From IMG/VR virus record IMGVR_UViG_3300019468_000034: 38,383 nt of DNA; one strand, given 5' to 3'. The DNA is from a virus. Positions within the stretch are counted from its first letter, which is position 1; each line of letters begins with the position of its first letter. Below, piece by piece: positions 6,771 through 35,960 of this stretch. The translations under genes and the position numbers were made by a program. Below the pieces are notes generated by a model that was not told the origin of the DNA, searched no databases, and saw only the letters and a list, made by a program, of their open reading frames with translations.

Positions 6771-6818
6771 AGTTACATATCACTCTGTGCTATCATGTAA
6801 GCTAGAAAAATAAGACAA

Positions 6819-6854
6819 GGAAGACCTGTATAGTGCAGGCCTTCCCTTTTTGTT
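6819..6854 (+). terminator. rho-independent terminator separating the early and late regions
   Basis: Stem GGAAGACCTG and CAGGCCTTCC (10 bp, one mismatch), loop TATAGTG, then CTTTTTGTT. Confidence 0.55.
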
Positions 6855-6873
6855 GCCGTAAAGCGAGGGTAGC

Positions 6874-7062
6874 ATGATCCGATGTGACAACCAAAGATGC
6901 AAACACAATCACCGCGAAATATGCGTGAACATGCACCTACAGATAGAATCGGAACGGTGTATATGCTTTGAACCAAAGTGGCAAAAGAAGCGAAAAACAA
7001 ACGAAACGGATATAAACCATACGCCCGTTTATCACTCAACTAGAAGGCGTACGTTTAGGTAG
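6874..7062 (+). CDS. small Cys-rich protein (C-x-N-x2-C-x-H-N...C...C-x-C; DUF1540-like pattern), hypothetical
   Basis: IRCDNQRCKHNHREICVNMHLQIESERCICF; weak GAGGGT RBS. Confidence 0.35.
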   Translation: MIRCDNQRCKHNHREICVNMHLQIESERCICFEPKWQKKRKTNETDINHTPVYHSTRRRTFR

Positions 7063-9133: not shown

Positions 9134-9337
9134 ATGTGTGGATTAAAAGGACTGTTCGGAAGTAGTTCATCTCCCGAATTTAAAACGCCGGATCCTACGG
9201 TGCAGGCCGTAAATAACGGCGACCAAGGAACAGCCGATAGCGTTGAAAAACAGCGTAAAAAACGCGGTTTCCAAAGTACGCGCACAGCTGTAGATACGGC
9301 ATTAGGAACAACAAATGGCAAAAACACGCTGGGATAA
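9134..9337 (+). CDS. hypothetical small protein between terminase and portal
   Basis: AAAGGGG RBS. Confidence 0.4.
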   Translation: MCGLKGLFGSSSSPEFKTPDPTVQAVNNGDQGTADSVEKQRKKRGFQSTRTAVDTALGTTNGKNTLG

Positions 9338-9347
9338 GGAGAAAAAT

Positions 9348-11084
9348 ATGCGTAAAGAAGTAGAAACGGCATTAGCTAGAAGCCCGACGAAAAATAAAAA
9401 GACGGTAAAACCGAACACGTGTAAAGATAAAAGAAAACTCGTGCAACGCTTTAACGCCTTGTTTCAAGCTCGTAGGCCCTGGGAAAGGGTATGGAAGTTA
9501 ATCCGTGATTATGAACTTCCCTATGACGGCTTATTCGACGACGACACGGCAGGAAAACCCGTCATACACGATGAAGAAATCTTTACAGGCGTTATTCAAG
9601 AAGCCCGCGATACCTTTGCAGCAGGCGTCCAATCGGGGCTCACACCGCCGTCTAGGCGTTGGTTTAGGTTTGGTATTGGAAATAAAGACCTGGCCGACGA
9701 CACAGGCGTACAGCGGTTCCTAGATACAAGAGCCGATATTATGGAATCGGTCCTTTCGGGCTCAAACTTCTACAATGCCATTCATCAGTGCTACTCGGAA
9801 CTTCCCTTTGGCCAAGCGGCTTTAGGGATTTTTTCACAAGGCGGCACGGTGACATTTGTTCCGTACACCATAGGTACCTATGCCCTGGCGTGTGACGCGA
9901 CAGGGAGAGTCTCAACCTTTGCTAGAAGAGCCAAAATGACCGTAAACCAAATCGTAAAGCAATTTGGATATGACAATTGCCCGATGACCGTTAAGCAGTC
10001 ATACGATAACGGAAGCGGCCACCAAAACTACCATACGGTATGCTGGCTAGTCGAAAAAAACGAGGATAACGACCCAAACAAGCTTAATAACAAAAAGATG
10101 CCGTTTACATCGACATACTGGGTAGAAGACTCAAACGAAGATGAATGCCTGGCGGTTACGGGCTTTGAAGAATGGCCCGTACCCATTGCCCGTTATACCG
10201 TAAAAGGAACAGAAGCCTACGCAACAGGTCCTGGCTGGAACGCTTTGCCGGACGCCAAGATGCTACAACAAATGGAACTTGACGCCATTACGGCCATTGA
10301 AATGGGGGTTAAACCTCCCTTGCAGGTCCCGCCGTCACAAGTGGGGAATATAAACCTCTTCCCCGGAGGTACAACGGCCATAAATGATCCGAATGAAGTT
10401 ATTCGTCCTATCTTCCAAGGACAATTAGCAATCGGAGAACTTGAAGGAAAAATCAAACGTGTGGAAGATAGAGTAAAACGCACGTATTCATCAGACCTCT
10501 TCTTAATGTTAGACCAACTGGATAAAGGCCGCATGACGGCCCAGGAAGTAATGGCAAGAAACCAGGAAAAATTGCAGCAACTAGGACCCGTGGTAGAACG
10601 CCTTCAATACGAGTTCTTAAACCGAATCCTTGAAAGGGTCTACAACATCTTAGATAGAAGCGGTATTTTCCCGGATATCCCGGAAGAGCTGCAAGACATT
10701 GTAGGCGAAGAGTTTAGGATCGAATACATCTCACCGCTTGCCCAAGCTCAAAAGATGAGTGGTCTTACATCGATTGAACAAGGCATCGGCTTTATCGGAC
10801 AAGCCGCACAATTCGACCAGACGGTCCTCGATAAGGTTAACCTTACAGAAGCGGTTGCTAACTACTTAGCACAAGTAGGCGTGCCGGCAGCTATGATCCG
10901 TTCAGATGAAGAAGTTGAGGAAATCCAAAAACAGCGTCAAGAAGCCCAAGCCGCAGCAGAAGCCCAAGCACAGCAACAAGCAGCTATTGCACAAGCTCCT
11001 GACCTTGCAGCCGCTGCTAAAAACGCAACAGAAGCGGCAAATGACGGCAATCCCGCTATGCAAGAATGGCTGGGAATGAGGTAA
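9348..11084 (+). CDS. portal (head-to-tail connector) protein, T7 gp8-like, with an A/Q-rich C-terminus
   Basis: TAAGGAGA lies 7 nt upstream of ATG 9348. Size, position and low-complexity QEAQAAAEAQAQQQAAIAQ tail resemble T7 gp8. Confidence 0.75.
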   Translation: MRKEVETALARSPTKNKKTVKPNTCKDKRKLVQRFNALFQARRPWERVWKLIRDYELPYDGLFDDDTAGKPVIHDEEIFTGVIQEARDTFAAGVQSGLTPPSRRWFRFGIGNKDLADDTGVQRFLDTRADIMESVLSGSNFYNAIHQCYSELPFGQAALGIFSQGGTVTFVPYTIGTYALACDATGRVSTFARRAKMTVNQIVKQFGYDNCPMTVKQSYDNGSGHQNYHTVCWLVEKNEDNDPNKLNNKKMPFTSTYWVEDSNEDECLAVTGFEEWPVPIARYTVKGTEAYATGPGWNALPDAKMLQQMELDAITAIEMGVKPPLQVPPSQVGNINLFPGGTTAINDPNEVIRPIFQGQLAIGELEGKIKRVEDRVKRTYSSDLFLMLDQLDKGRMTAQEVMARNQEKLQQLGPVVERLQYEFLNRILERVYNILDRSGIFPDIPEELQDIVGEEFRIEYISPLAQAQKMSGLTSIEQGIGFIGQAAQFDQTVLDKVNLTEAVANYLAQVGVPAAMIRSDEEVEEIQKQRQEAQAAAEAQAQQQAAIAQAPDLAAAAKNATEAANDGNPAMQEWLGMR

Positions 11085-11086
11085 AA

Positions 11087-11407
11087 ATGCACGAAAAAGA
11101 ACGAAAGACCGCACAACTTATGGAAGAAACCATACGAAGCCAAGACATGGAAGCCTTACGGTACGTTATGGAAAGTCCGTTAGGACGACATTTTATGGCT
11201 CGCCTTTTGGACGCAACAAGAATCTATAGCCCGCTATCGAACGAAACCACACTCTTAGACGAAGGACGAAGGCGTGTAGGCCTTGAATACTTAAAGCTCA
11301 TTCAATCCATGGGCCTTGAAGGAATGAAACTACTTCACCAAATGGAAGAAGAATACGCCGAAAAAAGAATTGAACTTGAAAGGATGAAAACAACATGGAC
11401 CAATTGA
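11087..11407 (+). CDS. hypothetical protein
   Basis: GAGGT upstream of ATG 11087. Confidence 0.45.
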   Translation: MHEKERKTAQLMEETIRSQDMEALRYVMESPLGRHFMARLLDATRIYSPLSNETTLLDEGRRRVGLEYLKLIQSMGLEGMKLLHQMEEEYAEKRIELERMKTTWTN

Positions 11408-12060
11408 AATTAAAATTTGACCTGCAACGATTCGCCGAAGGCCCGGAAAGCCAAGAGGCCGAAGGAACACAAGAACAAGCGACTGATACGAGCGCTAACC
11501 AAGAAGGTAGCGACTCATTTATCGGTAAGGAAACCCAGACCGCCTTAGGTGGTGACGGCGAAAGCACTGCTCCGCAAGTGCCGGAATCGTACGACTTTAC
11601 GACCGTATTAAAAGAAGCGGGCCTTGAAGCGGACGAAAAAATCACCGAAGAATTTACAACGCTCTTAAAGGGCATGGGTGCAACGCAAGAACAGGCAGCC
11701 GGCATGGCAACGTACGGCATTCAGTATGCCCAAGGCGTAGCCGAAGCGGTCGCCAAAAACCTCCAGGAACAATATGTAAGCGAAGTAAAGTCCTGGGGTG
11801 ATGCGGCAAAAGAAGAATTAGGCGGGGCTTATCAAGAAACGCTCGGCAAGGCCGCAATTACAAGAGATTACATTGAACAAAAGATTCCCGGCTTTACACA
11901 GATGTTAAATCTGACAGGGGCCGGCAATCATATAGCTATGATAAAAACCATGGCAGCCTTTGCCGATTTAATCGGTGAAGACCCCGGCAAGATGGGTGGC
12001 GCAGGTACCGCCGCAACCAGTACCGATATGTATCCTCATACGGATTTTTCAAAGTATTAA
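11395..12060 (+). CDS. scaffolding protein (acidic, between portal and capsid)
   Basis: Highly acidic and E/A/Q-rich; in the position of T7 gp9. Confidence 0.55.
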   Translation: MDQLKLKFDLQRFAEGPESQEAEGTQEQATDTSANQEGSDSFIGKETQTALGGDGESTAPQVPESYDFTTVLKEAGLEADEKITEEFTTLLKGMGATQEQAAGMATYGIQYAQGVAEAVAKNLQEQYVSEVKSWGDAAKEELGGAYQETLGKAAITRDYIEQKIPGFTQMLNLTGAGNHIAMIKTMAAFADLIGEDPGKMGGAGTAATSTDMYPHTDFSKY

Positions 12061-12081: not shown

Positions 12082-13080
12082 ATGATTGGAAGCACAGCAT
12101 TAACTTTCTCGGATTTAAGAAAGCGCTTAAATCCCCAGGGCCAATTGGACACGATTATGGAAGTCATGGCCCAGAGCAACCCTATTATGGAAGATATTCC
12201 CTGGATGGAAGGAAACCTTCCCACAGGCAACCAAACAACCGTACGCACGTCATACCCTCATCCGGAATTACGGCGCATTAATGCCGGCGTAAAGCCCGGA
12301 AAATCGACGACAAAGCAAATCATCGACACGTGCTGCTTAATGGAAGCACGCTCGGAAGTCGATGTGAAGCTCGTAAAACTGGCCCCGGATAAACAAGCCT
12401 TCCGCATGTCCGAAGACAAAGCCTATGTCCAGGGCTTTACGGATGATCTCGCTAAGTACATGTTCTACGGCGACACCGACGCAAACCCGGACCAGTTTAA
12501 CGGGTTAAGCATCCGCTACAACACGTTTAAAGGCGACCTCGGCGAAGAAGGCTACCAAGTCGTAAACGCCGGTGGTAAGACAGCCAATAAACAAACCTCC
12601 GCATACATCGTAGACTGGGGCGAAGATGCGGTTGTGGGCATTTATCCGAAAGGCTCTAAAGCAGGCCTTGATATCCAGGACCTCGGAGAAATCGACGCCA
12701 TCGATGCAAACGGCGGTAAATACCGGGCCCTTGCAACACTGTTCGATTGGGATGCGGGACTCGCAGTAAAGAACATCCGTAAAGTTGCAGCCGTCCGCAA
12801 CATCGATTGCAAGGCAGCAGCCGAAGACACAACCTCTGATGCACGCAAGGCATTAGCCGAAAGAATTGTAGTCGCCAAAAACAAAATCATAAACCCGAAA
12901 CGCCCGATTCTGTATGTATCGCCTATGGCATACACAATGCTCGAACTGCATATCGCAGATAAAAACAATGTATATGTAACGCAACAGCAACTCATGCAGG
13001 GTGTTCCGACGCTCTATGTATCGGGCCTTATTGTTAAGAAAAACGACGCATTAACAGAAACTGAACCCGTTATCGCCTAG
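12082..13080 (+). CDS. major capsid protein
   Basis: AAAGGAGAA RBS; 332 aa; follows the scaffold as T7 gp10 does. Confidence 0.7.
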   Translation: MIGSTALTFSDLRKRLNPQGQLDTIMEVMAQSNPIMEDIPWMEGNLPTGNQTTVRTSYPHPELRRINAGVKPGKSTTKQIIDTCCLMEARSEVDVKLVKLAPDKQAFRMSEDKAYVQGFTDDLAKYMFYGDTDANPDQFNGLSIRYNTFKGDLGEEGYQVVNAGGKTANKQTSAYIVDWGEDAVVGIYPKGSKAGLDIQDLGEIDAIDANGGKYRALATLFDWDAGLAVKNIRKVAAVRNIDCKAAAEDTTSDARKALAERIVVAKNKIINPKRPILYVSPMAYTMLELHIADKNNVYVTQQQLMQGVPTLYVSGLIVKKNDALTETEPVIA

Positions 13081-13092: not shown

Positions 13093-13443
13093 ATGATATA
13101 CGATGCAGAAAATACGTTCTTCTGGAACGTGAAATTATCCGGTACGTCCGGTACAGGCGAAGTTATTAAAACAGGTAAAGGTGACGCAGGAAGTCCCTTA
13201 ACCTTAGTTGTTAAATTACCCGGCGCCTCGGCAGATTGCACGGTAACGCTTGAAACAGCGGACAACGATAAGATGACAGGGGCTAAAACCTTAGGTACGT
13301 ATACGGCTGAAAAGGGTAAAACCTTAGCTGTTAAGGTACCTTACGGTGACCTCGGCTACCTCCGCTTAAAATGGACGGCAGCCGCAGCTCAATCGGCGGG
13401 CACCATTTCGGCGTCACTTGTAATGGATGCAGACGTACGATAA
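13093..13443 (+). CDS. capsid-associated protein (possible decoration or minor capsid protein)
   Basis: AAAGGAGAA RBS; predicted beta-rich, 116 aa. Confidence 0.5.
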   Translation: MIYDAENTFFWNVKLSGTSGTGEVIKTGKGDAGSPLTLVVKLPGASADCTVTLETADNDKMTGAKTLGTYTAEKGKTLAVKVPYGDLGYLRLKWTAAAAQSAGTISASLVMDADVR

Positions 13444-13652: not shown

Positions 13653-14243
13653 ATGACAGACACGGATATTTGCAACATGGCGCTATCGGATTTAGGAAAA
13701 GGCACCATTACCTCAATGAACGATAAAGAAGAAAACGCAAGGGCTTGTAAGCTCTATTACGACCAAACAAGAGAAACGGTACTCCGGGCGTATCCGTGGA
13801 GTTTTGCTCATAGAATTGAAAAGTTAGCCCTTCTTGATAAAGAAGTACCCGGATATGATTTTTGTTACGCATATCCGAAGAATTGCTTAAAAATTAATAA
13901 CATTCGAAATAAACAGATAAACGTACAAGAACACGTCCCGTACGTTATCGTAAATATAGATACAGCCACAAAGGCCATTGCTTGTAATTTACAAGACGCT
14001 TACACCGACTACACTGTGGACGAAAAAGACGTACAGGTTATGGATACCTTGTTTATAAGCGCCTTTACACGTCTACTTGCAGCCAATATGGCTATGCGCC
14101 TTACGGGAAATCCGCAAGCTTATCAAATGCAATATCAGTTATTCCAGGCTATTATTCACGACGCACAATTAAACGACGCAAGAGAAGGCCAAAGGGATGC
14201 GGTATATCATAGTAATTACGCCAACACTCGGAGGGTACGATGA
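13653..14243 (+). CDS. tail tubular protein A (T7 gp11-like adaptor)
   Basis: 196 aa, the same length as T7 gp11. N-terminal pattern ALSDLGKGTITSM...ENARAC...RAYPWSF parallels gp11 ILASIGEPPVSTL...ANARRI...QSRGWTF. Confidence 0.7.
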   Translation: MTDTDICNMALSDLGKGTITSMNDKEENARACKLYYDQTRETVLRAYPWSFAHRIEKLALLDKEVPGYDFCYAYPKNCLKINNIRNKQINVQEHVPYVIVNIDTATKAIACNLQDAYTDYTVDEKDVQVMDTLFISAFTRLLAANMAMRLTGNPQAYQMQYQLFQAIIHDAQLNDAREGQRDAVYHSNYANTRRVR

Positions 14244-17044
14244 ACATATATCTCATACAACCGTCGTTTGCAGCCGGCGAAATATCGCCGTACGTCGCAA
14301 ACCGTGTGGATTTAGATAAATACAAATCAGCCCTTCTAACAGCCCAAAACCTCGCCATTCGTCCGTTCGGCGGGTGCTATCGTAGACAAGGCTCGGAATT
14401 TATAGGACAGGTTAAATACGACGATAGGCCGACAGCCCTTGTCGCCTTTAATGCCGGAATAGATGATGCCTATCTATTAGAAGTAGGCTATCGGTATATC
14501 CGTATCTGGGAAGACGGGAAATACACGGAAACAGAGTTATCCACACCGTACGATAATGTGGATAACTTACAATTCACCCAATCCGCCGATACTATGTTTA
14601 TTTGTTCCGGAAATTATCCGATCCAATGCCTTCAAAGAACGGCTATGGGCTGGGCGTTTAAAGAGTACGAGATAACAGAACCTTATTACGATTCAGCGAC
14701 ACAAGCGGCAAATAAAGAAACGTCGTTTGTAGCACCTGGAACATACACTTTTACGCCGCAAGTAACGGGTAAATACACCGTAGAAATCATAGGGGCCGGT
14801 GGAGGTGGTGCCGGCACTGGAGTACAACATTACTCATATACACATGGGGGCGATGGACAAGAAGGCCAAGGGACCATAGAATTACAAGGCGGGAATGGTG
14901 GATCCGGCGAAAAGAAAATAACAATAGACACGCTAACCGCAGGACAAACATATTCCGTAACAGTAGGCGCTGGCGGAAAAGGCGGCAAATCCCAATATTC
15001 CCGGCGAGGCGACGCACACCCGACAGACGGAACGGGCGGAGGAAAATCATCCTTTAATAACACCGAAGCCAAAGGTGGCGGCGGTGGAATTGCAAGTAAG
15101 CCCAATGGAAAAAACCAAAGAATAGAAGGAAAAGACGGAATCTCGCATCAAGGAGGAGCCAAAGGCGGTGCTGCCGGCATATGTAAAGATGTTCAAAAGA
15201 ATCCCTCCCAAATAACAGACGGGAAAGACGGCCAAAATGGATACGTAAGAATCACCTTCTCCGGAAACAACGAATTAAAGCCCTCGACCACATCGGGTAA
15301 TGACGTTACCATTACGGCCACGAAAGACACGTTCACGCCGGGCATGGTGAACAGTCACATAAAATTAACCCAGCAAGCTGAAAACCAATCAGAACAAATT
15401 GAAATACAGGCCTCTTCCATTACAGAAGAAACCAAGTCTATACGAGTGGGAAAGGCCTGGAAGATTACAACTCACGGCACATGGAAGGGTAAGGTCACCG
15501 TTTATCACTCGGACGATAATAAGACCTGGCAAGAATATAGAAGCTATAAGTCAAACAACGACCAGAACTTCACAGAATCAGGGACCGTAACAACACCTAC
15601 CTGGATGAAAGCAGTAGCTGTAACGGATGCGGATAACGGAAGCGGCAAACTTACCGTAGACTTTTCCAGAAATCCCTATTCAAACGACGGCACCGCTAAA
15701 ATTACAGAAGTCGTTTCATCGACGGAAGTTAAAGCCTCGGTTATTACCGATTTTGCTAACACCGACAAAACCCAGGTATACGCACTAAGTAGCTGGAACG
15801 ACGATAACGGATATCCTAAAATGGCGTGCTTTTTCCAAGATAGATTAGTCTTAGCAGCCACAAAAAAAGAGCCCTACTCTATATGGATGAGTAGAACAGG
15901 GGATTATCCGAACTTTGGAATCGAAAAAGTAGACGGAGGAGTAACGGACGACTCGGCTATTAAAGCAGACCTTATCACTCGTAACGGCTTTGAGATTTTG
16001 CACCTGGTGCCGGCAAAAGACCTGGTTATATTAACAACAGGTAACGAATGGATTATAGAAGGCGCAAGCGTCATCACACCGGCTAAAATTAATCCCAGGC
16101 CGCAAACCATGCGCGGATCTAATTCATGCCCTCCGCAGCACATCGGTAATCGTATAGTACATGTACAGCGAAGTGGAAAGACCGTAAGAGACCTTGGCTA
16201 TCAATATGATGCGGATAATTATAACGGCGACAACTTAACGCTTTTGGCGACGCATTTAACAGAAGGCCATAAGCTGGTATCCTCGGCATACATTCAAGAG
16301 CCCAATAGCACCTTGTATTACGTCCGTGACGACGGAGCGCTGCTTTCACTGGCCTTTATTAAAGAGCAAAATGTATTTGCCTGGTCGCATCAAAAGACAG
16401 ACGGTAAATACAAAAAGGTAGCGTCCATTCCCAACGGCTCAAACGACGTGTTATACGTAACCGTAGAAAGAAACGGTAAAACCTATATAGAACGGTTTAA
16501 TCCCGATATAGAGGCGGCCGTATACATGGATTCGTACATTATAGGAAGCGGTAGTAGCATAGAAATACCACACCTTATAGGAAAAACGGTACAAGTCTTG
16601 GCCGACGGAACAAGGATGCAAGATGCGGTAGTACCAGAAAATGGCTTAGTGGCCTTTGGCCAGTCGTTTTCAGATATTACAATTGGCCTTGCCTACGAAA
16701 CAAGAATTAAGCAGCCGGGCCCTGATATAGGATTAAAAGAAGGCACTATGCAGGCTAGAATCTCAAAGATTAATACCGTCGTGTTAAGAGTAGAAAAATC
16801 CTACGGTGGCCATATCGGATACACATTTAAAGATAAGGATATGAACGAGCTCCGATACGAAGATTACGAAACGCTGGAAACAGGCGACATCGTGCAGCAA
16901 ATGCCGATAGCCGATATCGGCAGTAATACCAAAAACCATATCTGCATCAAGCACGACGAACCCTTCCCGTTTGAATTAAACGCAATCATAAGAGAGGTAA
17001 GTATTGATGGCGGCATTGTCAAAAGTTACAACGGAGAAATTTAA
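14240..17044 (+). CDS. tail tubular protein B / nozzle (gp12-like) with a roughly 160-aa glycine-rich insertion
   Basis: Position after the gp11-like gene, 934 aa, N-terminal AGEISPY...RRQG resembles the gp12 N-terminus. Gly-rich block at nt 14789..15270. Confidence 0.6.
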   Translation: MNIYLIQPSFAAGEISPYVANRVDLDKYKSALLTAQNLAIRPFGGCYRRQGSEFIGQVKYDDRPTALVAFNAGIDDAYLLEVGYRYIRIWEDGKYTETELSTPYDNVDNLQFTQSADTMFICSGNYPIQCLQRTAMGWAFKEYEITEPYYDSATQAANKETSFVAPGTYTFTPQVTGKYTVEIIGAGGGGAGTGVQHYSYTHGGDGQEGQGTIELQGGNGGSGEKKITIDTLTAGQTYSVTVGAGGKGGKSQYSRRGDAHPTDGTGGGKSSFNNTEAKGGGGGIASKPNGKNQRIEGKDGISHQGGAKGGAAGICKDVQKNPSQITDGKDGQNGYVRITFSGNNELKPSTTSGNDVTITATKDTFTPGMVNSHIKLTQQAENQSEQIEIQASSITEETKSIRVGKAWKITTHGTWKGKVTVYHSDDNKTWQEYRSYKSNNDQNFTESGTVTTPTWMKAVAVTDADNGSGKLTVDFSRNPYSNDGTAKITEVVSSTEVKASVITDFANTDKTQVYALSSWNDDNGYPKMACFFQDRLVLAATKKEPYSIWMSRTGDYPNFGIEKVDGGVTDDSAIKADLITRNGFEILHLVPAKDLVILTTGNEWIIEGASVITPAKINPRPQTMRGSNSCPPQHIGNRIVHVQRSGKTVRDLGYQYDADNYNGDNLTLLATHLTEGHKLVSSAYIQEPNSTLYYVRDDGALLSLAFIKEQNVFAWSHQKTDGKYKKVASIPNGSNDVLYVTVERNGKTYIERFNPDIEAAVYMDSYIIGSGSSIEIPHLIGKTVQVLADGTRMQDAVVPENGLVAFGQSFSDITIGLAYETRIKQPGPDIGLKEGTMQARISKINTVVLRVEKSYGGHIGYTFKDKDMNELRYEDYETLETGDIVQQMPIADIGSNTKNHICIKHDEPFPFELNAIIREVSIDGGIVKSYNGEI

Positions 17045-17483
17045 CAAGAAAGATAAAAAGCACCTCCAGGCCGTAAGGTACATAGAAGAACATTTACGGC
17101 CGATTGATAAAAAAGAACTACAAGGGGCTTGTACATCCGTTACCAAATGCGCCATACATGAATTTTGCGACAACTTTTTGGCGTTCGGCGAAAAGGGAGA
17201 ACCTATTGCCATATATGGGATCGTAAAATATCCGATAGACGGCCGTCACGCCGTGTGGATGGTAGGAACAACGGAAATCAAAAACTACAAAAAAGAATTA
17301 ATCACCATGGGATTTGAAGAAATCAGTAGATTCATCAAGGAATACGGACCTATAACAAACTATATAAGCATAGATAACAACGAATCACGGCGTTGGCTAC
17401 TAAAAGCCGGCGCCGGTTTTGGTACGCCGTTTAATGAAAACGGTATAACGTGGCAACAATTCGTAATAGGGAGGAATGAATAA
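17007..17483 (+). CDS. internal virion protein, gp13-position, hypothetical
   Basis: GAGGT lies 8 nt upstream of ATG 17007. Confidence 0.4.
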   Translation: MAALSKVTTEKFNKKDKKHLQAVRYIEEHLRPIDKKELQGACTSVTKCAIHEFCDNFLAFGEKGEPIAIYGIVKYPIDGRHAVWMVGTTEIKNYKKELITMGFEEISRFIKEYGPITNYISIDNNESRRWLLKAGAGFGTPFNENGITWQQFVIGRNE

Positions 17484-20756: not shown

Positions 20757-23700
20757 ATGGCAGAATATCGGTTCGACAATTTTAAAATCGATGCGAACAA
20801 TCCCACGGGAGAAACACCTAGTAGCGACGTATTAAATTTAAATAACGACAACTTAGGTTCCCAAGAAGGAATGGCCCAGGCCAATGCCGAACTGCAAGAA
20901 AAATACAATAGCATCAATCAGCAGGTCGCAAGTGGACAAATTAAGCAAAAACCACAAATGAATTATCAGCATCAAGAATCGAACTGGACTCCCCAGCAAG
21001 AAGAAAATGATGGGATAGGGACTAAAATATATAATGGCCTTCTTGCAATTGGTAACTGGGAAGTAAATAGCGCCATGGACGTATACCGAAACCTATTTAA
21101 CCCGAATGCAAGAGCCATGAATCAAGCCAAAACGTATGCCGACACACTAGGCCTTTCAGCTCAATTTTTAATGGACAATCCTGACGCATACAATACAGCA
21201 GAGGAAATATACAACAAAAAAATGGCGGCAAGATTCTTAGGCGGCGTGAAATTTTCGACAGCAGCCTTAGATGATATGTATCCGGAGCTTGCGGAAATTC
21301 GTCAAAAGGACCCGGTAAGTGCAGCCATGGCCCTACAAGATTACGAAGATGTTAAAAATACCAGAAGCATTTTTGAAGTAGTAAAAGACGCCTTTAATTC
21401 CGGATCGGATATGGTAAAACTCTCTGACGCACAAATGCGTGCATATAACGGAGAAAGCATAGATTCCGTACGGCCTGATGTAGATAAACTCACAGACGAA
21501 TTGCGGGCATATCAAGAGCCTAATAAATACGAAAGAACTTTATACGACACTATTCAGCAATTAACGATTATGGGAACTCAAGCCGTAAGAGCCACCAAAA
21601 GAGCCGCGCAAGGGGCTGCATTAGGCATGGCAACCTCAGCCGCAGCGGCAGGTGGCGCAGCCGCAACAGTAATCGGTGCAGAGGCAGCACCGATTATTTT
21701 ATTAGCAGGAGCCACAACAGGGGCCGCTTACGGTATGCGTGTAGGAATGTTCGAACAATTCGAACAGCAAAGTGCAGCTGCAAGATACTGGGAACTAATG
21801 AATAACCGTAAAGGTGAATATAGTAGAAACCATGCCCTTGTAGATTCGACCGTAACGGGTGTGGTAAATGGGGCTATTGAACTGGGCCTCATGGAAGTAG
21901 GGTATAAACCTATTACAAAAGCCTGGGGCGGACAAGCCGCTAAAAGCATATTAAATAATGCCGCAGCCAGAATGGCTATCATTGATGCGGGAAAAGAAAG
22001 CATCGCCAAATTATCCGCACAAGCCGCCATGAAACAATTCGGTAGAAGTACAGCCGCAGAGCTTGCAGAAGAAGGCGCACAACAAGCTTCCGAAGACCTT
22101 ATGGATAACGCCGAATATTATTTGTACAAAAAAGGCGCACCGCACACTACCACAGAAATTATAGGAAACGCTGTAGACGCTATGGTACAGGCCGTCCCGG
22201 CAGTAGTAGGCATGGGAGCCATGGGTGCTATAACGCACGGCGTAGGAAACTATCGCAGTATGCGGGCCATTGCAGCCATTAAAAATGAAGACTGGAAGCA
22301 AGAATACAGAAGAACAGTCGAACAACAGACTATTGAAGCGTTAATGGCAAACAAAGCCCAAAACAAAACCGCACAAAAAAATCCGGAAGTATATAAAAAC
22401 GTCGTACAAGAACAGGCCCGTCTTGCCGGTGTACAGAACATGTACGTAGACGCACAAGAGCTTTCAAAGACGGATAAAGGCGTAGACGTTTTAAATGATA
22501 TGGTAAATCGTGGAATTATTACGGGCGAACAAGTGGATAAATCCATTTCAACCGGTGCAGACATTGTAATTCCGACAGGTACCTTTGCCCAGCTTGCCGA
22601 CGAATCCGTGGATACCGATACTTTGATGCGGGCAACGACCATGGCTAAAAACGGTGTTCATCGCGCAGCCTTAGAAGAAAAAGCCAAACGAGTGGAAGCG
22701 ATCCGCGAAGAACTGGCTAATTTAGCCCAAAATAAAAAAGATGTTCTATCCAAGGAACTCATGGAAGAACATTTTAGTAATGCGGACGATATAACAAGAA
22801 CGGCCGCCGAAAGCGTTATATATAAGAATCCGTACGATCTGAACAAAAGCTATAAAGAAGCCCTAGCAGATGCTAGAAAAGAATATGAAGACGCACTGGG
22901 CTTTGATGCTTACTGGAATTACAAGCCGCAGGGCGTTGGCATTATGTACACCGACGAAGAAAGCCGTCAAACAGGCCGTGGAATCAGAGTCTCAAATAAT
23001 GACTACTGGTACCAGGATATGTATAAAAAGCTGGGTCGTAAAGCAACAAGAGAAGAAATGCTCGATATTGCTTACGAAGACCAAATGAAAGAACTACAAA
23101 CTCTGGCTCCGGAAGCGGCCGACGAATTTGCACAAAACGCAAATTCGTTAAAGGCAAAATATGAGTCCCTGCAAGGCTTAAAGGATAAATTCGAAGAATT
23201 GGCCAAGAGCGATTATGCCGTAAAACAATCCCTTACCAAAGAAGGTTACGAAGTATACAACGAAGTCGTAAATCGACTTCAAGACGGTAGCGAAAAATCC
23301 AAATTAGCAGCCAACGAAAACGCCTTCATATACGCACGCATGGCCGAAAGCTGGGCAAGAATCCGCAACGAATACGGCGATACGGCTTACACGGCCAAGG
23401 ATTTTATGGCAGAACATGCGGTGAACATTGGATATGAGAATATAAAAAACACCTACACGCAAGCAATGTTCGATGTTCGCAGGGTAGGCGTAAATAATTT
23501 AGAAGATTTTTTAAAAAGAGTTAAAGCAAGAAGAAGCGCGGGTGAGGTCGCGAACAAAATAATGTTTACCGGTAAGTTTGGCGTAATATATACAGAAGCT
23601 CAAGTTGTCCATGCGATGACAGAACATAACGGGCATATACTAACTACAGAGCAAATGGAAGACATAGAAAAACATATAGGCATTATGCACCATGTCGCTA

Positions 23701-29700: not shown

Positions 29701-29810
29701 TCCAAGAACTTATTACCACAACGATATTTGATAAGCGCTACAAGACACACGAAGAACGGGTACGCCAAGACAAGAAAAAGGCTAATGAACAAAAAAAGAA
29801 AGGAAAATAA
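20757..29810 (+). CDS. giant virion protein (3,017 aa) in the gp16 position; internally duplicated module plus an HExxH zincin motif; candidate polyvalent ejected effector
   Basis: AAAGGAG RBS; uninterrupted 9,054-nt ORF. Two QRAWHG...HGWGxY modules at aa 1085 and 1364. HEAAH at aa 1636. Confidence 0.7.
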   Translation: MAEYRFDNFKIDANNPTGETPSSDVLNLNNDNLGSQEGMAQANAELQEKYNSINQQVASGQIKQKPQMNYQHQESNWTPQQEENDGIGTKIYNGLLAIGNWEVNSAMDVYRNLFNPNARAMNQAKTYADTLGLSAQFLMDNPDAYNTAEEIYNKKMAARFLGGVKFSTAALDDMYPELAEIRQKDPVSAAMALQDYEDVKNTRSIFEVVKDAFNSGSDMVKLSDAQMRAYNGESIDSVRPDVDKLTDELRAYQEPNKYERTLYDTIQQLTIMGTQAVRATKRAAQGAALGMATSAAAAGGAAATVIGAEAAPIILLAGATTGAAYGMRVGMFEQFEQQSAAARYWELMNNRKGEYSRNHALVDSTVTGVVNGAIELGLMEVGYKPITKAWGGQAAKSILNNAAARMAIIDAGKESIAKLSAQAAMKQFGRSTAAELAEEGAQQASEDLMDNAEYYLYKKGAPHTTTEIIGNAVDAMVQAVPAVVGMGAMGAITHGVGNYRSMRAIAAIKNEDWKQEYRRTVEQQTIEALMANKAQNKTAQKNPEVYKNVVQEQARLAGVQNMYVDAQELSKTDKGVDVLNDMVNRGIITGEQVDKSISTGADIVIPTGTFAQLADESVDTDTLMRATTMAKNGVHRAALEEKAKRVEAIREELANLAQNKKDVLSKELMEEHFSNADDITRTAAESVIYKNPYDLNKSYKEALADARKEYEDALGFDAYWNYKPQGVGIMYTDEESRQTGRGIRVSNNDYWYQDMYKKLGRKATREEMLDIAYEDQMKELQTLAPEAADEFAQNANSLKAKYESLQGLKDKFEELAKSDYAVKQSLTKEGYEVYNEVVNRLQDGSEKSKLAANENAFIYARMAESWARIRNEYGDTAYTAKDFMAEHAVNIGYENIKNTYTQAMFDVRRVGVNNLEDFLKRVKARRSAGEVANKIMFTGKFGVIYTEAQVVHAMTEHNGHILTTEQMEDIEKHIGIMHHVAISRKKELTNFNGVPVLASINGEKGDYYVVLEFNKDGKIWFKTGMPVSTDSAKSIIKQKIEEGSAYRLTHNTQGRTGLNTSSIRIDTVAEKLKSVNNKEKDTFDQRAWHGSGMDFNEFNLEKALTGAGDMVHGWGIYTAKNKKTAQAYKKHAQSKGLPSYLYEVDIPKDENLLVEEKRYQEQTPKIQEKLARTISDLPDSQQKIFWEKLLRNEMRRLPEETEALSDLDKAKDKVKQLEVASKGLENTDKPKLKEKIAIKHLKALGYIDKQIKDRNFMQTEKEKEEKVLAAVKKEAEKAKASIQERKDSILEAAIQNPKDALKRSVGTGKEIYRYLSASLDSMEEASQQLNKNGIEGISYYDSKDGDCVVVFSDKAVNIIDQYKQRAWHGTPYDFDTFDLSGIGSGEGNQAHGWGLYFAQNREVSEAYKEILGDKGSTVELNGEVWTVNESGDWETTGKTAKYGEAIGYALDALEEHGTKDAAINILQKDLKEGRFRGAYIAEAQKAVNILRQGEAKGHKGGRLLEAEIPDTDVLLDEQKLFKEQPEKVKNALSKLISNTGEGQLSRRAFKNATGKSIYEMLSNLYGDDKKASLKLNEFGVKGITYKGTQDERCYVVFDDKAIEIRNKYDQEIKASYNSATGAIHLFDGADQSSFVHEAAHMYLTEMSKMAVDEAAPKGLMEDWNTIQNWAAYKPEDIKDYEGTAREKEFKSYAKAIEDARKSGDVIAIRAAEERWMQERFARGFERYIAEGKAPTQALQSAFRKFKSWLISIYRDLKKLGKEPPEDVKRVMDRMIATDDEIEAWAKAKELNAWDKKGFSGDLTGSEGDMIKRWAEDAKEKAKERVLKELMRQEENQWRTDLENSLEKERIDYEKHLVDENPIYGQELVYRETGEQFKEDYLRTIGYDSKESFESAIEKAGGPLEERSKAFMENRRKEYEEMMPTSEDFKNAADAELASTNAQMRLSQLEAYAIKRKVNGYVAEAVKAMRELDALDGKSEEEITAGIKEILGVDDEAAKKGRQVALVLAKNEEIQKLKERLKDAKEKDKEYRALAREELASAKAALKEAMRGLNTARDITAGSYTKTLQVAREELSKMTVAEATIWRHWEIKAKQEGNNADKLMAAGAFEEAATAKGNSLKYYCMSRAAKDNQEYVRTKLEGSTGRVDMQQEAMDGIKGMVKRISRRENPVRLDPNSRYMIQHLAYITGITEKDGIKPLNEKGESVGINWEKVYGDLNPDYAMDKETAPNPDKIVAPWLRILAESKERKDYNEMQMDQFQDMVEAMNVLYKASRRDYEATTIKDRNGKVISQEEAALKLVQAIGVDNSFNPLQDSNNQTDAKSKAKSLAKDALLYLTKAETIFDRFGGDWMQLVYEPINQGANKELTMRQEACKTFSKIYNMYSLEEWQAMRSDRVFTIGLTTNFTREQLICMALNWGNKEGRKRVLATINKSAKNEADVIDEYTMQSVLESSLTEKDWNFIEAVWEQLDSYWAERNKVQENLYGQGLGKVQALPFNINGRQIKGGYYPIVYDPKLSIRASDLAADDIVKQALSGSSTFGIGMGSTKSRVSEVKGQQLALRLDVWPQAVTEAIHHIAMREAATDVYKLITHPAVQQAVQQKYGMETYNIIRQWSKDVWKTDVQKADIINRTLEQMRKNSAFAVMAMRTGTAILNVLNVFPMMHQIGKINTLKAITGFGLGFYKGTDTYARNRQFVFDKSPMMRDRMNTIDRDMQQDMKLEVGQDTSLIRERATHAKEKFNRFGYWFITETDLMFSMALWKHGYDESMRKQIEAGMTDVKQMEQNAISDADTNVRAVFGSGQVKDQVAMQRKNTLVGQLTPFYSYSSTVLNALIKAGYRVKDHGDYMALINATLYWVVLQTLAETVYRSAVAGELDDPDKMLRRLGITTVRNVDQGIPVVRDALEGVMNHFLLGSDSNNSPLAITAIDELVKAAQAAGNEKKDFTDVGRSLSRVGNRTWKFSDTLSDGFWNLVRFSLVDTDRSVQELITTTIFDKRYKTHEERVRQDKKKANEQKKKGK

Positions 29811-29813: not shown

Positions 29814-31427
29814 ATGATAAGTAAAGACAAAACCACAATCACGTATAAGGGGGACGGGGTTACAACCTCGTTCCCCTTCCCTTATCAGTACAGAGCAGGC
29901 GAAGATATTAAAGGGTATTTATTAGTAAACGGTAAAGAAATGCCGATTGTAGCCAACTACCGTTTCGACGAAGTAGAGAATAAATTCATCTATCCCGTAA
30001 ACGGCGTACCGTTATTTACAACCGACACCCTTGTTATTAAGCGACAAACGCCGATTGAACAAAACGCCGATCTTCCTAATAAGTATCCGTATAACGCCGT
30101 TGAGACGGTAGCCGACAATCTCACTCTCATTGTTCAGGAACAGGAAGCAAAAATTAAAGGAATAGAAAATATCCGCGATGAATTAACCGAAACAACGGAA
30201 CACACCGCTAGAATGGCCGATAGGGTTTTAAATGCCATATCAAACGGGTACAATGTGGCACAGAATCAGTGGGCTCCGTTCGAATACATAAATCCCGCCG
30301 AAAAAACCGTAAAAGAATTAAAAAAAGAAATAGACGAGTTCAAACTGGCAGCACAGCGCATGGGAGCCGAAAATGGAACTAGAGTCATCGCTAAAGCTTG
30401 GTTTGACGTCGAAGATTTCATTAAAAACGCCAAAAACGAGGCATATGTTATTAACTACGGGCCACAAGTAGACCTTGTAATGGGCGTAGAAAGAAACGCA
30501 GTTATCATACAGACCGAAGAAAAAACCTACCGATTAATAGATGAATCAGTAGGATACAAGGTTCAAGAAGTCATAGAAGCGGCCGTCAATAATAAGGGTA
30601 CTACCATGGACGCTAATACAACCGGCTCCGCTAAAACGATAAGTATAGAACCCGTAACAAACGTAAATGAAGCGGTGACGCCCGGAAGGTACATTGGAGA
30701 AAGCATTGCAATTAATAACGAAACATTCCAGGGATATGTATTAGACGTCCTAACACTGGAAGATATAATCTTCCAAACGCTCACAACATTAGACGGCAGA
30801 GTATTCGTAAGAAAAAGCGATACAAAACCCATCACAACGTCTTGGACAGAACCCTATAAAAAAGACGTATTAGTAGAAGAAAATACCGCTCAATTCGGGA
30901 AGGCAAAGATAGAATTAACCAATAACGGAAGTCTTAGTGTAAAGGATATAACCGCTCCCGATAAAGGGGGTGAACTGGCATTAAGGAGCGAATTAAACAA
31001 AGTATCAGATTCAATAAGCGGACGCAAAGCACCGGTCATGACACCGCTTATAGATTGGGAGGCGATGAAGCGGCAAAACTCTAACAACGACGTAAGAAAT
31101 ATCAATAATACAGGCACCGGCATTGTAGGGACCAATACAAATAACCCGATTATACTAAAAGAGTCATACAAAAACCATGATAAAGTCGTAATTATCGCGA
31201 CAGATACCCAGGGCAGATACAGACTTCCGGTAACATACGAAACATGGTTGCTTGCCTTTTTATTCGACCAAAAGAATGGGTTTTCTTTATTTGACGTATA
31301 TAGTTTTATGTGGAAATTAACGTCAACAACCAACACGTCGAACCCGTCAACAGATACGCAATGGAGACAGTACGAAAAAAATTGCGGCATCATCGAAATA
31401 TACGGGATTAAATACGAAAGGACGTAA
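29814..31427 (+). CDS. tail fibre / receptor-binding protein
   Basis: Position after the internal virion proteins. N-terminal TTITYKGDGVTTSFPFPYQY is a fibre-like motif. 537 aa. Confidence 0.6.
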   Translation: MISKDKTTITYKGDGVTTSFPFPYQYRAGEDIKGYLLVNGKEMPIVANYRFDEVENKFIYPVNGVPLFTTDTLVIKRQTPIEQNADLPNKYPYNAVETVADNLTLIVQEQEAKIKGIENIRDELTETTEHTARMADRVLNAISNGYNVAQNQWAPFEYINPAEKTVKELKKEIDEFKLAAQRMGAENGTRVIAKAWFDVEDFIKNAKNEAYVINYGPQVDLVMGVERNAVIIQTEEKTYRLIDESVGYKVQEVIEAAVNNKGTTMDANTTGSAKTISIEPVTNVNEAVTPGRYIGESIAINNETFQGYVLDVLTLEDIIFQTLTTLDGRVFVRKSDTKPITTSWTEPYKKDVLVEENTAQFGKAKIELTNNGSLSVKDITAPDKGGELALRSELNKVSDSISGRKAPVMTPLIDWEAMKRQNSNNDVRNINNTGTGIVGTNTNNPIILKESYKNHDKVVIIATDTQGRYRLPVTYETWLLAFLFDQKNGFSLFDVYSFMWKLTSTTNTSNPSTDTQWRQYEKNCGIIEIYGIKYERT

Positions 31428-31938: not shown

Positions 31939-32466
31939 GTGGAATTCATGGACGAGCTGGTTACAAGGATACTATTAAACGTATCTCATGAACATGTCTT
32001 AGATATCTGTAACGTCATCCTACTGGTACTAATTCTCTTGGTGGCCGATGCTTTCTTGCGCATTATTGCGGAAGTATTCCAGTATAATAAAGACCACAAC
32101 CGCAAGAACACAACTAAAACTTTTATCACAACGCTTATATGGTATGGCTGGGGGCAGGGCGACTACATCGACGCCAACACAGGGAAAATCAAACGCTATC
32201 TCATGAGTGAGAAATTAAGAAGCAGCATGTTAAAAAAGATATGCATATTCTACCCGGCATGGTTTTTCTTATCGATCGCATGTGTCTCTCTTCCGGACAC
32301 CGTATTTATCGGAGTCCGTGGAGACGAACTATTGGCCAATGTTTTTATGTGGTGGCCCGTCGCCTCGGAACTTTCGTCAATTATTGAAAACCTAAGAGAA
32401 ATTGATACTTACCATTTCGTAAGAATCAAAAACATGTTCATGGAAATTAACAAAATGAGGAAGTGA
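31939..32466 (+). CDS. holin-like multi-pass membrane protein
   Basis: GTG start 6 nt after AAAGGAG; four hydrophobic segments; adjacent to the endolysin. Confidence 0.45.
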   Translation: MEFMDELVTRILLNVSHEHVLDICNVILLVLILLVADAFLRIIAEVFQYNKDHNRKNTTKTFITTLIWYGWGQGDYIDANTGKIKRYLMSEKLRSSMLKKICIFYPAWFFLSIACVSLPDTVFIGVRGDELLANVFMWWPVASELSSIIENLREIDTYHFVRIKNMFMEINKMRK

Positions 32467-32471: not shown

Positions 32472-32648
32472 GTGATAGACAAAATTAATATCGCAGACCT
32501 GGTAGTCATTACAGGCCTCGTAACGGGGCTTGTAATGGCTATTTTGTTTAGCTTGAATGAATTGGCTATGTCTATCGCCTCCGGCCTCTTGGGATATATC
32601 GGAGGCTCGAAACTTTCACCGCACAAAGAAAGGAGTGATGAAAAATGA
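32472..32648 (+). CDS. small membrane protein (possible second holin component)
   Basis: GTG 32472 is 8 nt after GAGGAAG (alternative GTG at 32463). Two hydrophobic segments. Confidence 0.4.
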   Translation: MIDKINIADLVVITGLVTGLVMAILFSLNELAMSIASGLLGYIGGSKLSPHKERSDEK

Positions 32649-33223
32649 GAGAAGTAACACTAGAAGAAATCAAAAACCTGGCACGGGAAGCCTATTGGGA
32701 TTTATGGAATGGAGCCCGGAGTATGGGCCGTGACGTCAAACTATATATCCACTGGACGGGTGGCCGTTACAACCAGACTTTTAGCGACTACCACATTAGC
32801 ATTACAGGCGAAGGCCACTGCTTTATCTCAACGGATAATTTCGCCGAAGTCAAAAACGCAACATATATGAGAAATACCGGTAGCATCGCTATTACGCTTT
32901 GTTGTGCCCTGGATGCTATAGGTCCGGACAACTTAGGACCGTACCCGCCGACAGAAGCACAGATTAACGCCATTTCACAGGTTGTATGCGTCCTAGCCGA
33001 TGCGCTGGATCTTACGATTGATGCGAACCGGGTCATGACACACGCCGAAGCGGCCGATAATCTCGACGGGCTTTATACCCATGATGATTACGGCCCGGAT
33101 TCAACATGTGAACGCTGGGACCTTTGGGTACTTAGAGAGGGTGAAGAACCCGGCACCGGCGGGCAACAAATTAGAGGAAATGCCAATTATTATAGACACC
33201 ACAAATTATTAAGTGACGTGTAA
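32645..33223 (+). CDS. endolysin, N-acetylmuramoyl-L-alanine amidase (Amidase_2/PGRP family)
   Basis: YIHWTGG...GSIAITLC...VMTHAEAAD is an Amidase_2 pattern (T7 lysozyme family). AAAGGAG RBS. Confidence 0.8.
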   Translation: MREVTLEEIKNLAREAYWDLWNGARSMGRDVKLYIHWTGGRYNQTFSDYHISITGEGHCFISTDNFAEVKNATYMRNTGSIAITLCCALDAIGPDNLGPYPPTEAQINAISQVVCVLADALDLTIDANRVMTHAEAADNLDGLYTHDDYGPDSTCERWDLWVLREGEEPGTGGQQIRGNANYYRHHKLLSDV

Positions 33224-34898: not shown

Positions 34899-35960
34899 TC
34901 ATTTAAAAATATTTGCGACCCTGTCCGCTGCCCGAAGTCGCATCTCGTCCGTAAAATGAATGTATGTGTTAATAACGGTATTTACGTCATCGCCTAAAAG
35001 ACTTGCAACGGTTTTTACGTCAAGGCCGTTCGCTAAAAGCGTAGTCGCGTATGTGTGTCTCATATCGTGAATCGATTTTCCACTTACAACCGTCCATATA
35101 ACATTATTAACCCGGCTGGAATGATTACCTTTAGCAGGAAACAATACAAGGCCGTCGCATTGCTTTTTATAGTCCTTTAATATCTTCAACAACACCGGCG
35201 GGACGGGAAGTATACGATAACTGTTTTTAGTCTTTAGTTGATTAAACCCAAACTTATTTTGCCCGGAACGAACAAACTGCTTATTAATATTAATGGTAGA
35301 CACTGAAAAATCAATATCATCCCATGTTAAGCCTAGAATTTCACTATAGCGACAGCCGGTATATCTGGCAACAGAAACCAAAGCGTAGTAATACGAAGAA
35401 TAGCCTTTTAGAAAATCCATCAACCTGTCCAGATCATCCTCGGTAAACACCCTAATTTTTCTCCGTTCGCTTTTCGCCTTTTCAACCAAATCGCACGGGT
35501 TAAGGGCAATAGCACCATAGGGTCTTTTTGCGTAATTAAAAATAGTCTTTAGGCGTTGGAGATATAAATTTCTTGTTCCGGGAGAAAGGCAACCGGAGTT
35601 AAAAACCGAAACGATTTGAGAATACGAAATGTTGCGGATAGGAAGCGGTGCTAATTCCTGGAAGAATCGCAAAGAGTGCTCGTAAGTAAGACGGGTATTA
35701 TAGGTGAGATTCGACTTCTCGCGAAGGTATAAAGAATAGAAGTCACCAAGCGTGGCATCGCGGAGATCCTCGGAGGTGAAAACGGAAACTGTTTCTTTTA
35801 ACTCGGCGATAATATCCTGGCCATATTCTTTAGCCGCTCTTTGCGTTTTAAAGCCTTGCTTTGACTTTTGACGCCACTTACGACCGTCTTTATAACTAAC
35901 AATAACCTGATAGCCGTTATCCTTTTTTCGTATTGTAATATTTGCCTGCATTTTTAACAC
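34899..35960 (-). CDS. int: tyrosine site-specific integrase
   Basis: HDMRHTYAT and the C-terminal catalytic Tyr region VINTYIHF. N-terminal arm-binding-like domain. 353 aa. Confidence 0.9.
   Translation of the reverse strand: MLKMQANITIRKKDNGYQVIVSYKDGRKWRQKSKQGFKTQRAAKEYGQDIIAELKETVSVFTSEDLRDATLGDFYSLYLREKSNLTYNTRLTYEHSLRFFQELAPLPIRNISYSQIVSVFNSGCLSPGTRNLYLQRLKTIFNYAKRPYGAIALNPCDLVEKAKSERRKIRVFTEDDLDRLMDFLKGYSSYYYALVSVARYTGCRYSEILGLTWDDIDFSVSTININKQFVRSGQNKFGFNQLKTKNSYRILPVPPVLLKILKDYKKQCDGLVLFPAKGNHSSRVNNVIWTVVSGKSIHDMRHTYATTLLANGLDVKTVASLLGDDVNTVINTYIHFTDEMRLRAADRVANIFK

Follow-up and report, generated by a model that had tools for sequence, protein, structure and literature searches.

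A 3,017-residue protein in the T7 gp16 position of a podophage is probably an ejection protein with predicted effector modules between two scaffold halves

What does a phage encode in a single gene that fills nearly a quarter of its genome and stands where T7 has the gene for its largest ejection protein, gp16? We asked this of IMG/VR virus record IMGVR_UViG_3300019468_000034, a stretch of 38,383 nucleotides (nt) that was analyzed in full and is called the window below, and of the open reading frame (ORF) that dominates it:

20757..29810, + strand: giant ORF, 3,017 amino acids (aa), probable ejection protein in the IVP-D/gp16 position with polyvalent-protein architecture (ORF scan, homology)

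With a probability of about 0.7, we read this ORF as encoding the largest internal virion (ejection) protein of the phage, the counterpart of T7 gp16 (class D of the internal virion proteins, IVP-D), which delivers predicted host-modifying passenger modules held between two scaffold halves and is processed through an HExxH motif. Its virion location, ejection, enzyme activities, targets, and proteolytic processing are all points that we infer only. An earlier note on this DNA, made from the sequence alone, had proposed a gp16-position ejection protein with effector-like passengers, as in the polyvalent proteins of phages. This proposal holds up on synteny, on homology to the phage proteins Bbp10 and CP2 ORF24, on matches to the ADP-ribosyltransferase (ART) family ART-PolyVal, on a BECR-like cassette, and on the domains found throughout the family.

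The giant ORF is confirmed as a real gene. It starts with ATG and continues for 3,017 codons without an internal stop, forming the single uninterrupted frame of 9,054 nt (23.6% of the 38,383-nt window) that the earlier note had put at about 24% of the genome. ORFs in other frames within it are all 172 aa or shorter, and a run of 3,017 stop-free codons would arise by chance with a probability of ~e^-170 at ~5% stop codons. Only the unusual length would hint at several genes joined in error during assembly or sequencing. When 5.8 billion proteins were searched with the giant protein, 1,057 homologues were returned at E<=1e-5, and the best 120 of these are 84-95% identical, 2,765-3,079 aa long, and drawn from separate ENA, JGI, Logan, and NCBI assemblies, mostly contigs of ~38 kb. 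Given genes of similar length at this identity in over 100 independent assemblies from four sources, we regard an assembly or annotation artefact as next to impossible. Moreover, the prophage copies in two metagenome-assembled genomes (MAGs) of Megasphaera micronuciformis translate in full, and the isolated phages BPP-1 and CP2 have homologues of 2,052 and 2,478 aa.

The gene position and its homologues carry the reading as an ejection protein. The gene lies between a gp15-like protein and the tail fibre, as had been recognized earlier, with a PF24072 gene and an 874-aa ORF upstream and the fibre downstream. In tblastn searches of phage genomes, aa 1613-2950 match single very large genes at 24-28% identity (E to 2e-45) in Bordetella phages BPP-1/BIP-1/BMP-1, Xanthomonas CP2-like, Pseudomonas AF-like, Caulobacter SR18/Jess A, Vibrio (including Vibrio 1.021), and Cobetia phages, among others; the match to BPP-1 Bbp10 has an E of 3e-29. 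In BPP-1, bbp10 encodes 2,052 aa between bbp11 and the fibre gene bbp9, and CP2 ORF24 (2,478 aa) comes after genes of 167 and 730 aa, so that the giant gene occupies the same position in Megasphaera prophages, BPP-1, and CP2. Hardies et al. (2016; PMC4819975) listed Bbp10 as a homologue of IVP-D (T7 gp16) in the epsilon15 subgroup and reported that IVPs host domains destined for the cytoplasm. In a preprint on the CP2-like phage PhiXacm4-11, gp33, gp34, and gp35 (167, 730, and 2,300 aa) are treated as the counterparts of gp14, gp15, and gp16; the transglycosylase is placed in gp34, and gp35 resembles nothing in the PDB (bioRxiv 10.64898/2026.02.16.706137). With PhiXacm4-11, Bbp10, and CP2 ORF24 as precedents, phages of this lineage are thus already known to carry a giant gene in the gp16 position.

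The family to which the protein belongs is large. When 1.84 billion cluster representatives were searched exhaustively (HMMER, query aa 1751-2950), 5,417 clusters matched at E<=1e-3, including 1,361 at E<=1e-30. From these we use a diverse set, the best 150 of the 5,417 representatives, which are less than 50% identical and not phylogenetically independent, next to a close set of ~120 relatives that are 84-95% identical over the giant protein. Within the best 150 of the 5,417 clusters, full-length members are nearly all 2,000-3,765 aa long, with the matched core at their C-terminal end. A length of 3,017 aa is ordinary for the family, and the exceptional size that the earlier note had stressed disappears in this comparison. 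Pfam domains in 14 diverse family giants are LPD23 (in 11), ART-PolyVal (8), PBECR5 (7), LPD3 (3), MuF_C (2), and RadC (1), plus extra metallopeptidases, and Bbp10 carries the polyvalent-protein domains LPD22 and PBECR1. By this domain content, the family belongs as a branch to the phage-type polyvalent proteins that Iyer et al. described (2017; PMC5512222).

Comparison with relatives, by which the earlier note had hoped to locate insertions, resolves the protein into two conserved halves that flank three passengers, with variation at aa 1-200, in a cassette slot, and in the second of two ART modules. From the N terminus to the C terminus, its parts are as follows:

20757..21356, + strand: aa 1-200, variable N-terminus (alleles among close relatives)
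21357..23432, + strand: aa 201-892, conserved N-terminal scaffold half
23433..24008, + strand: aa 893-1084, cassette slot, here with a putative RNase allele of PBECR/BECR fold (H952, H960, FKT1023G strand)
24009..24845, + strand: aa 1085-1363, ART-PolyVal-like module 1 (H1089, Y1117, D1344/D1353; ~150-aa helical insert)
24846..25586, + strand: aa 1364-1610, ART-PolyVal-like module 2 (H1368, Y1396, D1590/D1599)
25587..26156, + strand: aa 1611-1800, start of the core with a zincin-like metallopeptidase motif
26157..27476, + strand: aa 1801-2240, K/E-rich helical region of the core (by composition; in 76 of the 150 diverse representatives)
27477..29606, + strand: aa 2241-2950, conserved C-terminal core domain (phrog_9880)

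Both scaffold halves extend well beyond the close relatives. In the N-terminal half, aa 201-892 are 86-100% identical among close relatives, and the diverse set retains aa 520-892 in 102 of 150 representatives and aa 200-520 in 55 of 150. This half contains Gly/Ala-rich hydrophobic segments at aa 288-319 and 468-497 (hydrophobicity scan), as well as an EEGxQ motif at aa 437-443 with columns that are nearly invariant across family alignments. Ahead of it, aa 1-200 come in three unrelated classes of allele, in phages whose giant proteins are otherwise 84-95% identical. At the other end, aa 2241-2937 match phrog_9880 (E 8e-128); the domain at aa 2241-2950 has ~25 invariant columns in 35 diverse members, includes a hydrophobic segment at aa 2640-2658, and is common to BPP-1 Bbp10, CP2 ORF24, and Caulobacter, Pseudomonas AF, and Vibrio phages. 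Like other IVP-C/D proteins, the giant protein is largely helical and rich in K and E. The K/E-rich stretches described earlier are present, with a K+E fraction of 0.24-0.34 at aa 1101-1300 and 0.26-0.29 at aa 1801-2100, and the fraction reaches 0.47 in the last 17 aa.

The core begins with the only HExxH of the giant protein, HEAAH at aa 1636-1640 (nt 25662-25676), which the earlier note had also seen, and a putative downstream Glu of the peptidase follows at E1718 (nt 25908-25910). S1632, H1636, E1637, H1640, and E1718 are invariant in 35 diverse members and in a second set of 18. Because the motif is invariant across the family and stands at the start of the conserved core, the alignments place it in the ancestral core and not, as previously suggested, among acquired passengers, which agrees with the peptidase in the C-terminal region of N4 gp50 (PMC5512222). 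No Pfam peptidase or MPTase-PolyVal matches aa 1611-1800. Some family members carry passenger peptidases besides the core one: in CP2 ORF24, the core HExxH (aa 1265) is preceded by another one (VVLHEVLH, aa 926), and an extra peptidase-like module, TLxHEIQH, is found in the alignment of 14 family giants.

Just upstream of the core lie the two ART modules, which form the internally duplicated module of the earlier note. Compared directly, aa 1085-1363 and aa 1364-1622 are 27% identical with an E of 3e-24, a relationship that a self-BLAST of the whole protein at E 1e-3 missed. ART-PolyVal is defined by a His in strand 1, a Tyr in strand 2, and an Asp in strand 5 (PMC5512222), and both window modules keep these H-Y-D residues on a predicted strand assignment. 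In 30 diverse ART modules, the His and Tyr are invariant and two Asp are ~97% conserved; 15 of 17 diverse homologous modules match ART-PolyVal, and family members reach an E of 2e-22. The complete unit of ~270 aa is present in one to three copies in 55 of the 150 representatives. An ART assignment is thus probable for modules 1 and 2.

The third passenger, in the cassette slot, has no Pfam match in the allele of the window. Homologues of this allele occur in 13 of the 150 representatives, and their alignment shows invariant H952 and H960 followed by a four-strand pattern. PBECR3 is matched by 2 of 14 cassette homologues (E 3.9e-5), and an AlphaFold2 (AF2) model of the cassette has a mean confidence (pLDDT) of 77, a predicted TM score (pTM) of 0.75, and a core near 90. 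The predicted fold of the cassette resembles BECR toxins, and we describe it as a putative RelE/colicin-like (BECR-fold) RNase. Alternative alleles found in this slot among near-identical phages are PBECR3, MuF_C (three classes), or LPD3, and at least six unrelated allele classes occur there; hhalign found no relationship between the cassette allele alignments, a negative of little weight given how shallow they are (Neff, the effective number of sequences, 1-2).

Diversity among phages that are 84-95% identical is confined to aa 1-200, the cassette slot, and ART module 2, and identity outside these regions is 90-100% among close relatives. Module 2 is missing in 23 of 121 close relatives, which have one ART instead of two. 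Variation of this kind in cassette and ART modules is the pattern to be expected of effectors under diversifying selection on a fixed delivery scaffold, and the within-population swapping of cassettes resembles Helicobacter jhp1044 as described in PMC5512222.

How might the modules be separated from the scaffold? A short motif, [YFL]-x-Q, is found at all four module boundaries of the window protein:

23454..23462, + strand: Y900-T-Q902, start of the RNase-like cassette (AF2 pLDDT <50 up to the motif)
24003..24011, + strand: F1083-D-Q1085, cassette/ART module 1 boundary (low-pLDDT tail of the cassette model)
24840..24848, + strand: Y1362-K-Q1364, ART module 1/ART module 2 boundary
25578..25586, + strand: Y1608-D-Q1610, ART module 2/metallopeptidase-core boundary (20-residue low-confidence linker follows)

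These copies sit at the edges of confidently modelled domains, in segments of pLDDT <50, which after Y1608-D-Q1610 comprise model residues 247-266. The six unrelated classes of cassette allele all keep the motif on both sides. In the diverse representatives, ART modules start with Q in 50 of 50 cases, and in 47 of these Y, L, or F stands at position -2, irrespective of what precedes the module. At 22-49 residues before the core HExxH, the motif occurs in 98 of 113 representatives versus 21.5% expected, and the strict form [YF][YFN]Q in 61 of 113 versus 2.2% expected, both counts being from phylogenetically related representatives. Bbp10 (F766-Y-Q768) and CP2 ORF24 (L1228-N-Q1230) likewise have it ~30 aa upstream of the core HExxH. 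Of the 17 [YFL]-x-Q in the window protein, the family alignment shows just five as conserved: those at the four junctions and one at aa 610. This fifth copy (aa 610-612, TFAQ; nt 22584-22592), located in the N-terminal scaffold and kept in 25 of 32 diverse homologues, might mark yet another boundary between modules or a site of processing.

A bulky hydrophobic residue at P1' is a common preference of zincins, and to our knowledge no cleavage motif has been defined for polyvalent proteins. We suggest that [YFL]-x-Q may be a processing site; as a conserved junction motif, it seems to be new. Iyer et al. (2017) proposed autoprocessing and named no cleavage site (PMC5512222). Taken further, the giant protein could be a self-processing polyprotein in which the HExxH peptidase cuts at [YFL]-x-Q, after ejection or in the head, and frees the effectors from an ejectosome scaffold inserted in the membrane. 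We consider this possible, at clearly less than even odds. If it were true, any effector placed between two motifs would automatically be deliverable, since the same motif brackets every module, and this bracketing would explain why cassettes swap freely in near-identical phages.

The same motifs in disordered linkers would also suit a different timing or use of the passengers. A head protease or the embedded peptidase could release them by the time the head has matured, or earlier, to act as free internal proteins like T4 Alt and the IP proteins, or they could serve lysogens in fending off competing phages or defence systems instead of helping in early take-over of the host. T4 Alt is a precedent, P1 DdrB is processed before packaging (PMC5512222), and the ORF at 11395..12060 matches a PHROG annotated as protease; for that ORF, however, Pfam gives no protease support, and N4 gp50 is packaged unprocessed (PMC5512222). 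A role in lysogens would fit the temperate nature of the phage, which has an integrase and prophage relatives. On balance we find these alternatives improbable.

Under the preferred reading, an ejection protein that carries passengers between scaffold halves, infection would proceed along lines suggested by T7 and N4 biology in the papers cited. A few copies of the giant protein would be packaged in the capsid core and would exit by way of the tail, either before the DNA or together with it. The scaffold halves (aa 201-892 and 1611-2950) would serve in capsid-core packaging, tail passage, membrane insertion, and channel building, with the hydrophobic segments at aa 288-319, 468-497, and 2640-2658 as candidates for membrane insertion. 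The RNase-like module and the two ART modules would reach the cytoplasm and hit host RNA and host proteins or nucleic acids before phage genes are expressed. The HExxH...E peptidase would cut the polyprotein, and the [YFL]-x-Q motifs in disordered linkers are its candidate sites.

Several results weigh against this reading or parts of it. Neither single sequences nor a family profile gave a direct match to T7 gp16 or any solved ejection protein in the PDB, the sequences of which include the T7 gp16 entries 7k5c and 6yt5: phmmer searches of PDB sequences with aa 1-1084, 1001-1767, and 2001-3017 returned noise only, and an 18-sequence family profile found only apolipoprotein-type amphipathic-helix or coiled-coil proteins and no ejection protein. 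Comparison of the family hidden Markov model (HMM) and sub-HMMs with N4 gp50 was not significant and yielded short motif resemblances only (E..EEGxQ, IHELxH). The literature consulted yielded no virion proteomics that names a family member. The ART-PolyVal profile PF18760, with a gathering cut-off of 31.2 bits, is borderline, scoring 26.8 bits for the whole protein, 24.4 for module 1, and 36.3 for module 2 alone or 30.1 when module 2 is searched in a 437-aa segment. Its alignment covers only profile positions 10-67 of 140, because the helical insert of ~150 aa splits the domain and leaves just the N-terminal third to align. Finally, [YFL]-x-Q could be a structural linker signature rather than a cleavage site. 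We infer the IVP-D label from synteny and from the published HMM-HMM chain through Bbp10 (PMC4819975). Searches of the giant ORF with Pfam and PHROGs detected neither an RNA polymerase family nor a muralytic domain.

In view of the partial, borderline ART matches, the protein might be a purely structural ejection or channel protein, in which the ART-like, RNase-like, and HExxH segments are catalytically dead relics with no role but that of spacers or capsid-core packing modules. Fold searches found no zincin match for the HExxH region and no ART match, results that are uninformative, and the helical, K/E-rich character shared with IVP-C/D proteins would suit such a role. Inactive PBECR domains have also been reported, for example in Mu MuF (Iyer et al., PMC5512222). 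However, the predicted catalytic residues (H/Y/D of the ART modules, the two His of the cassette, and HExxH...E) are invariant across homologues that are less than 50% identical, and the swapping of enzyme-type alleles together with the change in ART copy number, both in near-identical phages, points to diversifying selection on function and not on packing. A purely structural role is thus quite improbable in our view.

The remainder of the window fits the setting of an ejection protein. It is most likely the genome of a temperate podophage of the epsilon15/BPP-1 lineage that infects Megasphaera, with capsid, portal, and accessory proteins of epsilon15/BPP-1 type in its structural module. Genes around the giant ORF are as follows:

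7685..9127, + strand: terminase
9315..11084, + strand: portal (PF12236, E 5e-139)
11066..11407, + strand: Bbp19-like protein
11395..12060, + strand: 221-aa ORF in the scaffold position (PHROG annotated as protease, E 1.4e-26; no Pfam family)
12082..13080, + strand: major capsid protein of epsilon15 GP7 type (PF20911, E 1e-100)
13093..13443, + strand: Bbp16-like protein (weak)
13653..14243, + strand: tail tubular protein A
14240..17044, + strand: tail tubular protein B
17004..17483: 159-aa ORF in the gp13 position, overlapping the end of the tail tubular protein B gene
17483..18118, + strand: gp14-family internal virion protein (PF24072 T7_gp14, 38.7 bits versus a cut-off of 27; phrog_418)
18121..20745, + strand: 874-aa protein in the gp15 position (SLT, E 0.025; phrog_1044 endolysin, E 2.7e-4; both weak)
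29814..31427, + strand: tail fibre (phrog_1640 tail protein, E 9e-5; Phage_T7_tail N-terminal domain, E 0.0038; both weak)
31939..32466, + strand: holin
32645..33223, + strand: amidase
34899..35960, - strand: integrase

The giant gene is located downstream of the terminase, portal, capsid, and gp14- and gp15-position genes, and the tail fibre gene is next. For the ORF at 11395..12060, we rejected the prohead protease of the PHROG annotation, given its scaffold position and the lack of Pfam support; the presence or absence of a head protease there bears on when the giant protein would be processed. The 159-aa ORF at 17004-17483 weakly resembles both the T4 RNA ligase family (E 8e-5) and T7 gp13 (E 5e-4). 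In the ejection module, the sole muralytic signal is the weak SLT/endolysin match of the 874-aa protein in the gp15 position, which parallels PhiXacm4-11 gp34, whereas T7 has its transglycosylase in gp16. Nearly all window genes are on the + strand, and the AT skew of this strand is positive in every 1-kb window (0.02-0.37), mostly 0.19-0.37 outside ~32-38 kb. In the early region (1-7000), ORFs of at least 80 aa are all shorter than 270 aa, so there is no sign of a phage RNA polymerase. Presumably, the phage relies on the host RNA polymerase, so that an injected ART that modifies this enzyme is an attractive, speculative idea.

The integrase and prophage relatives mark the phage as temperate. 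In the two Megasphaera micronuciformis MAGs, the integrated prophage has an identical gene order and a giant protein that is 85% identical. It ends ~5 kb downstream of the giant gene (MAG loci 24059-29084) and lies directly beside jag-yidC-yidD-rnpA-rpmH and dnaA-dnaN, so that it is integrated next to the region of the chromosomal replication origin. Megasphaera, a Negativicute, has an outer membrane and thus two membranes, so a T7-type trans-envelope ejectosome is plausible in this host. A scan of GTDB species-representative genomes revealed no close relatives of the C-terminal core. A megablast search of 50,697 phage records gave no match for 24.5 kb of the window; in those records, relatives are detected at the protein level only.

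Among known proteins, the closest in kind are Bbp10, CP2 ORF24, and PhiXacm4-11 gp35, which share the gene position and a homologous C-terminal core of ~1,350 aa that includes HExxH...E. BPP-1 is also of the same capsid lineage, and its Bbp10 carries polyvalent-protein domains as well. In contrast to this group, the window protein is ~500-1,000 aa longer, its passengers are a BECR-like cassette that Pfam does not recognize and two ART modules, its N-terminal scaffold is not matched in those phages by tblastn, and its host is a Negativicute instead of a proteobacterium. With the phage-type polyvalent proteins (PMC5512222), it has in common a very large size, a place among virion genes, and the joining of unrelated enzymatic domains, namely, an H-Y-D ART, a PBECR RNase, and a zincin-like peptidase hub, each of these being predicted in the window protein. 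Delivery with the DNA and autoprocessing have been predicted for that class (PMC5512222). Unlike its members, the window protein has a cassette allele and an HExxH region that fall outside the current Pfam PolyVal models.

More distant systems share the logic of delivery. Like the T7 gp16 gene, the giant gene closes a set of three internal-protein genes, of which it is the largest, between nozzle and tail fibre, and it has a gp14-family protein upstream and the IVP-D link via Bbp10 (PMC4819975). T7 gp16 differs in its length of 1,318 aa, its N-terminal lytic transglycosylase, and its lack of an ART, RNase, or HExxH domain, and its direct sequence similarity to the window protein is undetectable. 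The virion RNA polymerase of N4, gp50 (3,500 aa), similarly has a cytoplasm-destined enzyme between N- and C-terminal regions for injection and encapsidation, and its C-terminal part is an IVP-D homologue with an HExxH peptidase (PMC5512222, PMC4819975), whereas the window protein has no RNA polymerase domain. T4 Alt and the MuF- or portal-fused toxins are ART or RNase effectors that are packaged in the head and injected with DNA, as we suppose for the modules here. Alt, however, belongs to the R-S-E clade of ARTs and is a separate protein packaged via a capsid-targeting sequence, in contrast to the predicted ARTs of the window, which are of H-Y-D type and form part of the ejection protein.

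The architecture, the domain families, and homologues from cultured phages are thus already in the literature, and this is not a new kind of system. The earlier note had called it the strongest candidate for an undescribed one, a claim that is overtaken by the IVP-D homologues with cytoplasm-destined domains of 2016 (PMC4819975) and the polyvalent proteins of 2017 (PMC5512222). What seems new, in addition to the junction motif, is the swapping in the cassette slot and the variation in ART copy number. Polyvalent or ejection proteins of this type are apparently without an experimental study of their passenger domains, as far as our partial survey of the literature goes. The copy in the window comes from an abundant human-associated Megasphaera phage, the variants of which owe nearly all their differences to the effector slot and to ART copy number, and these natural variants provide a ready-made allelic series for the effects of injected ARTs and RNases in the first minutes of infection. 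The [YFL]-x-Q motif turns a general idea of processing into a specific prediction that can be tested by mass spectrometry. If self-processing proves true, this family of more than 5,000 clusters would be a plug-and-play platform for effector delivery, analogous to polymorphic toxins.

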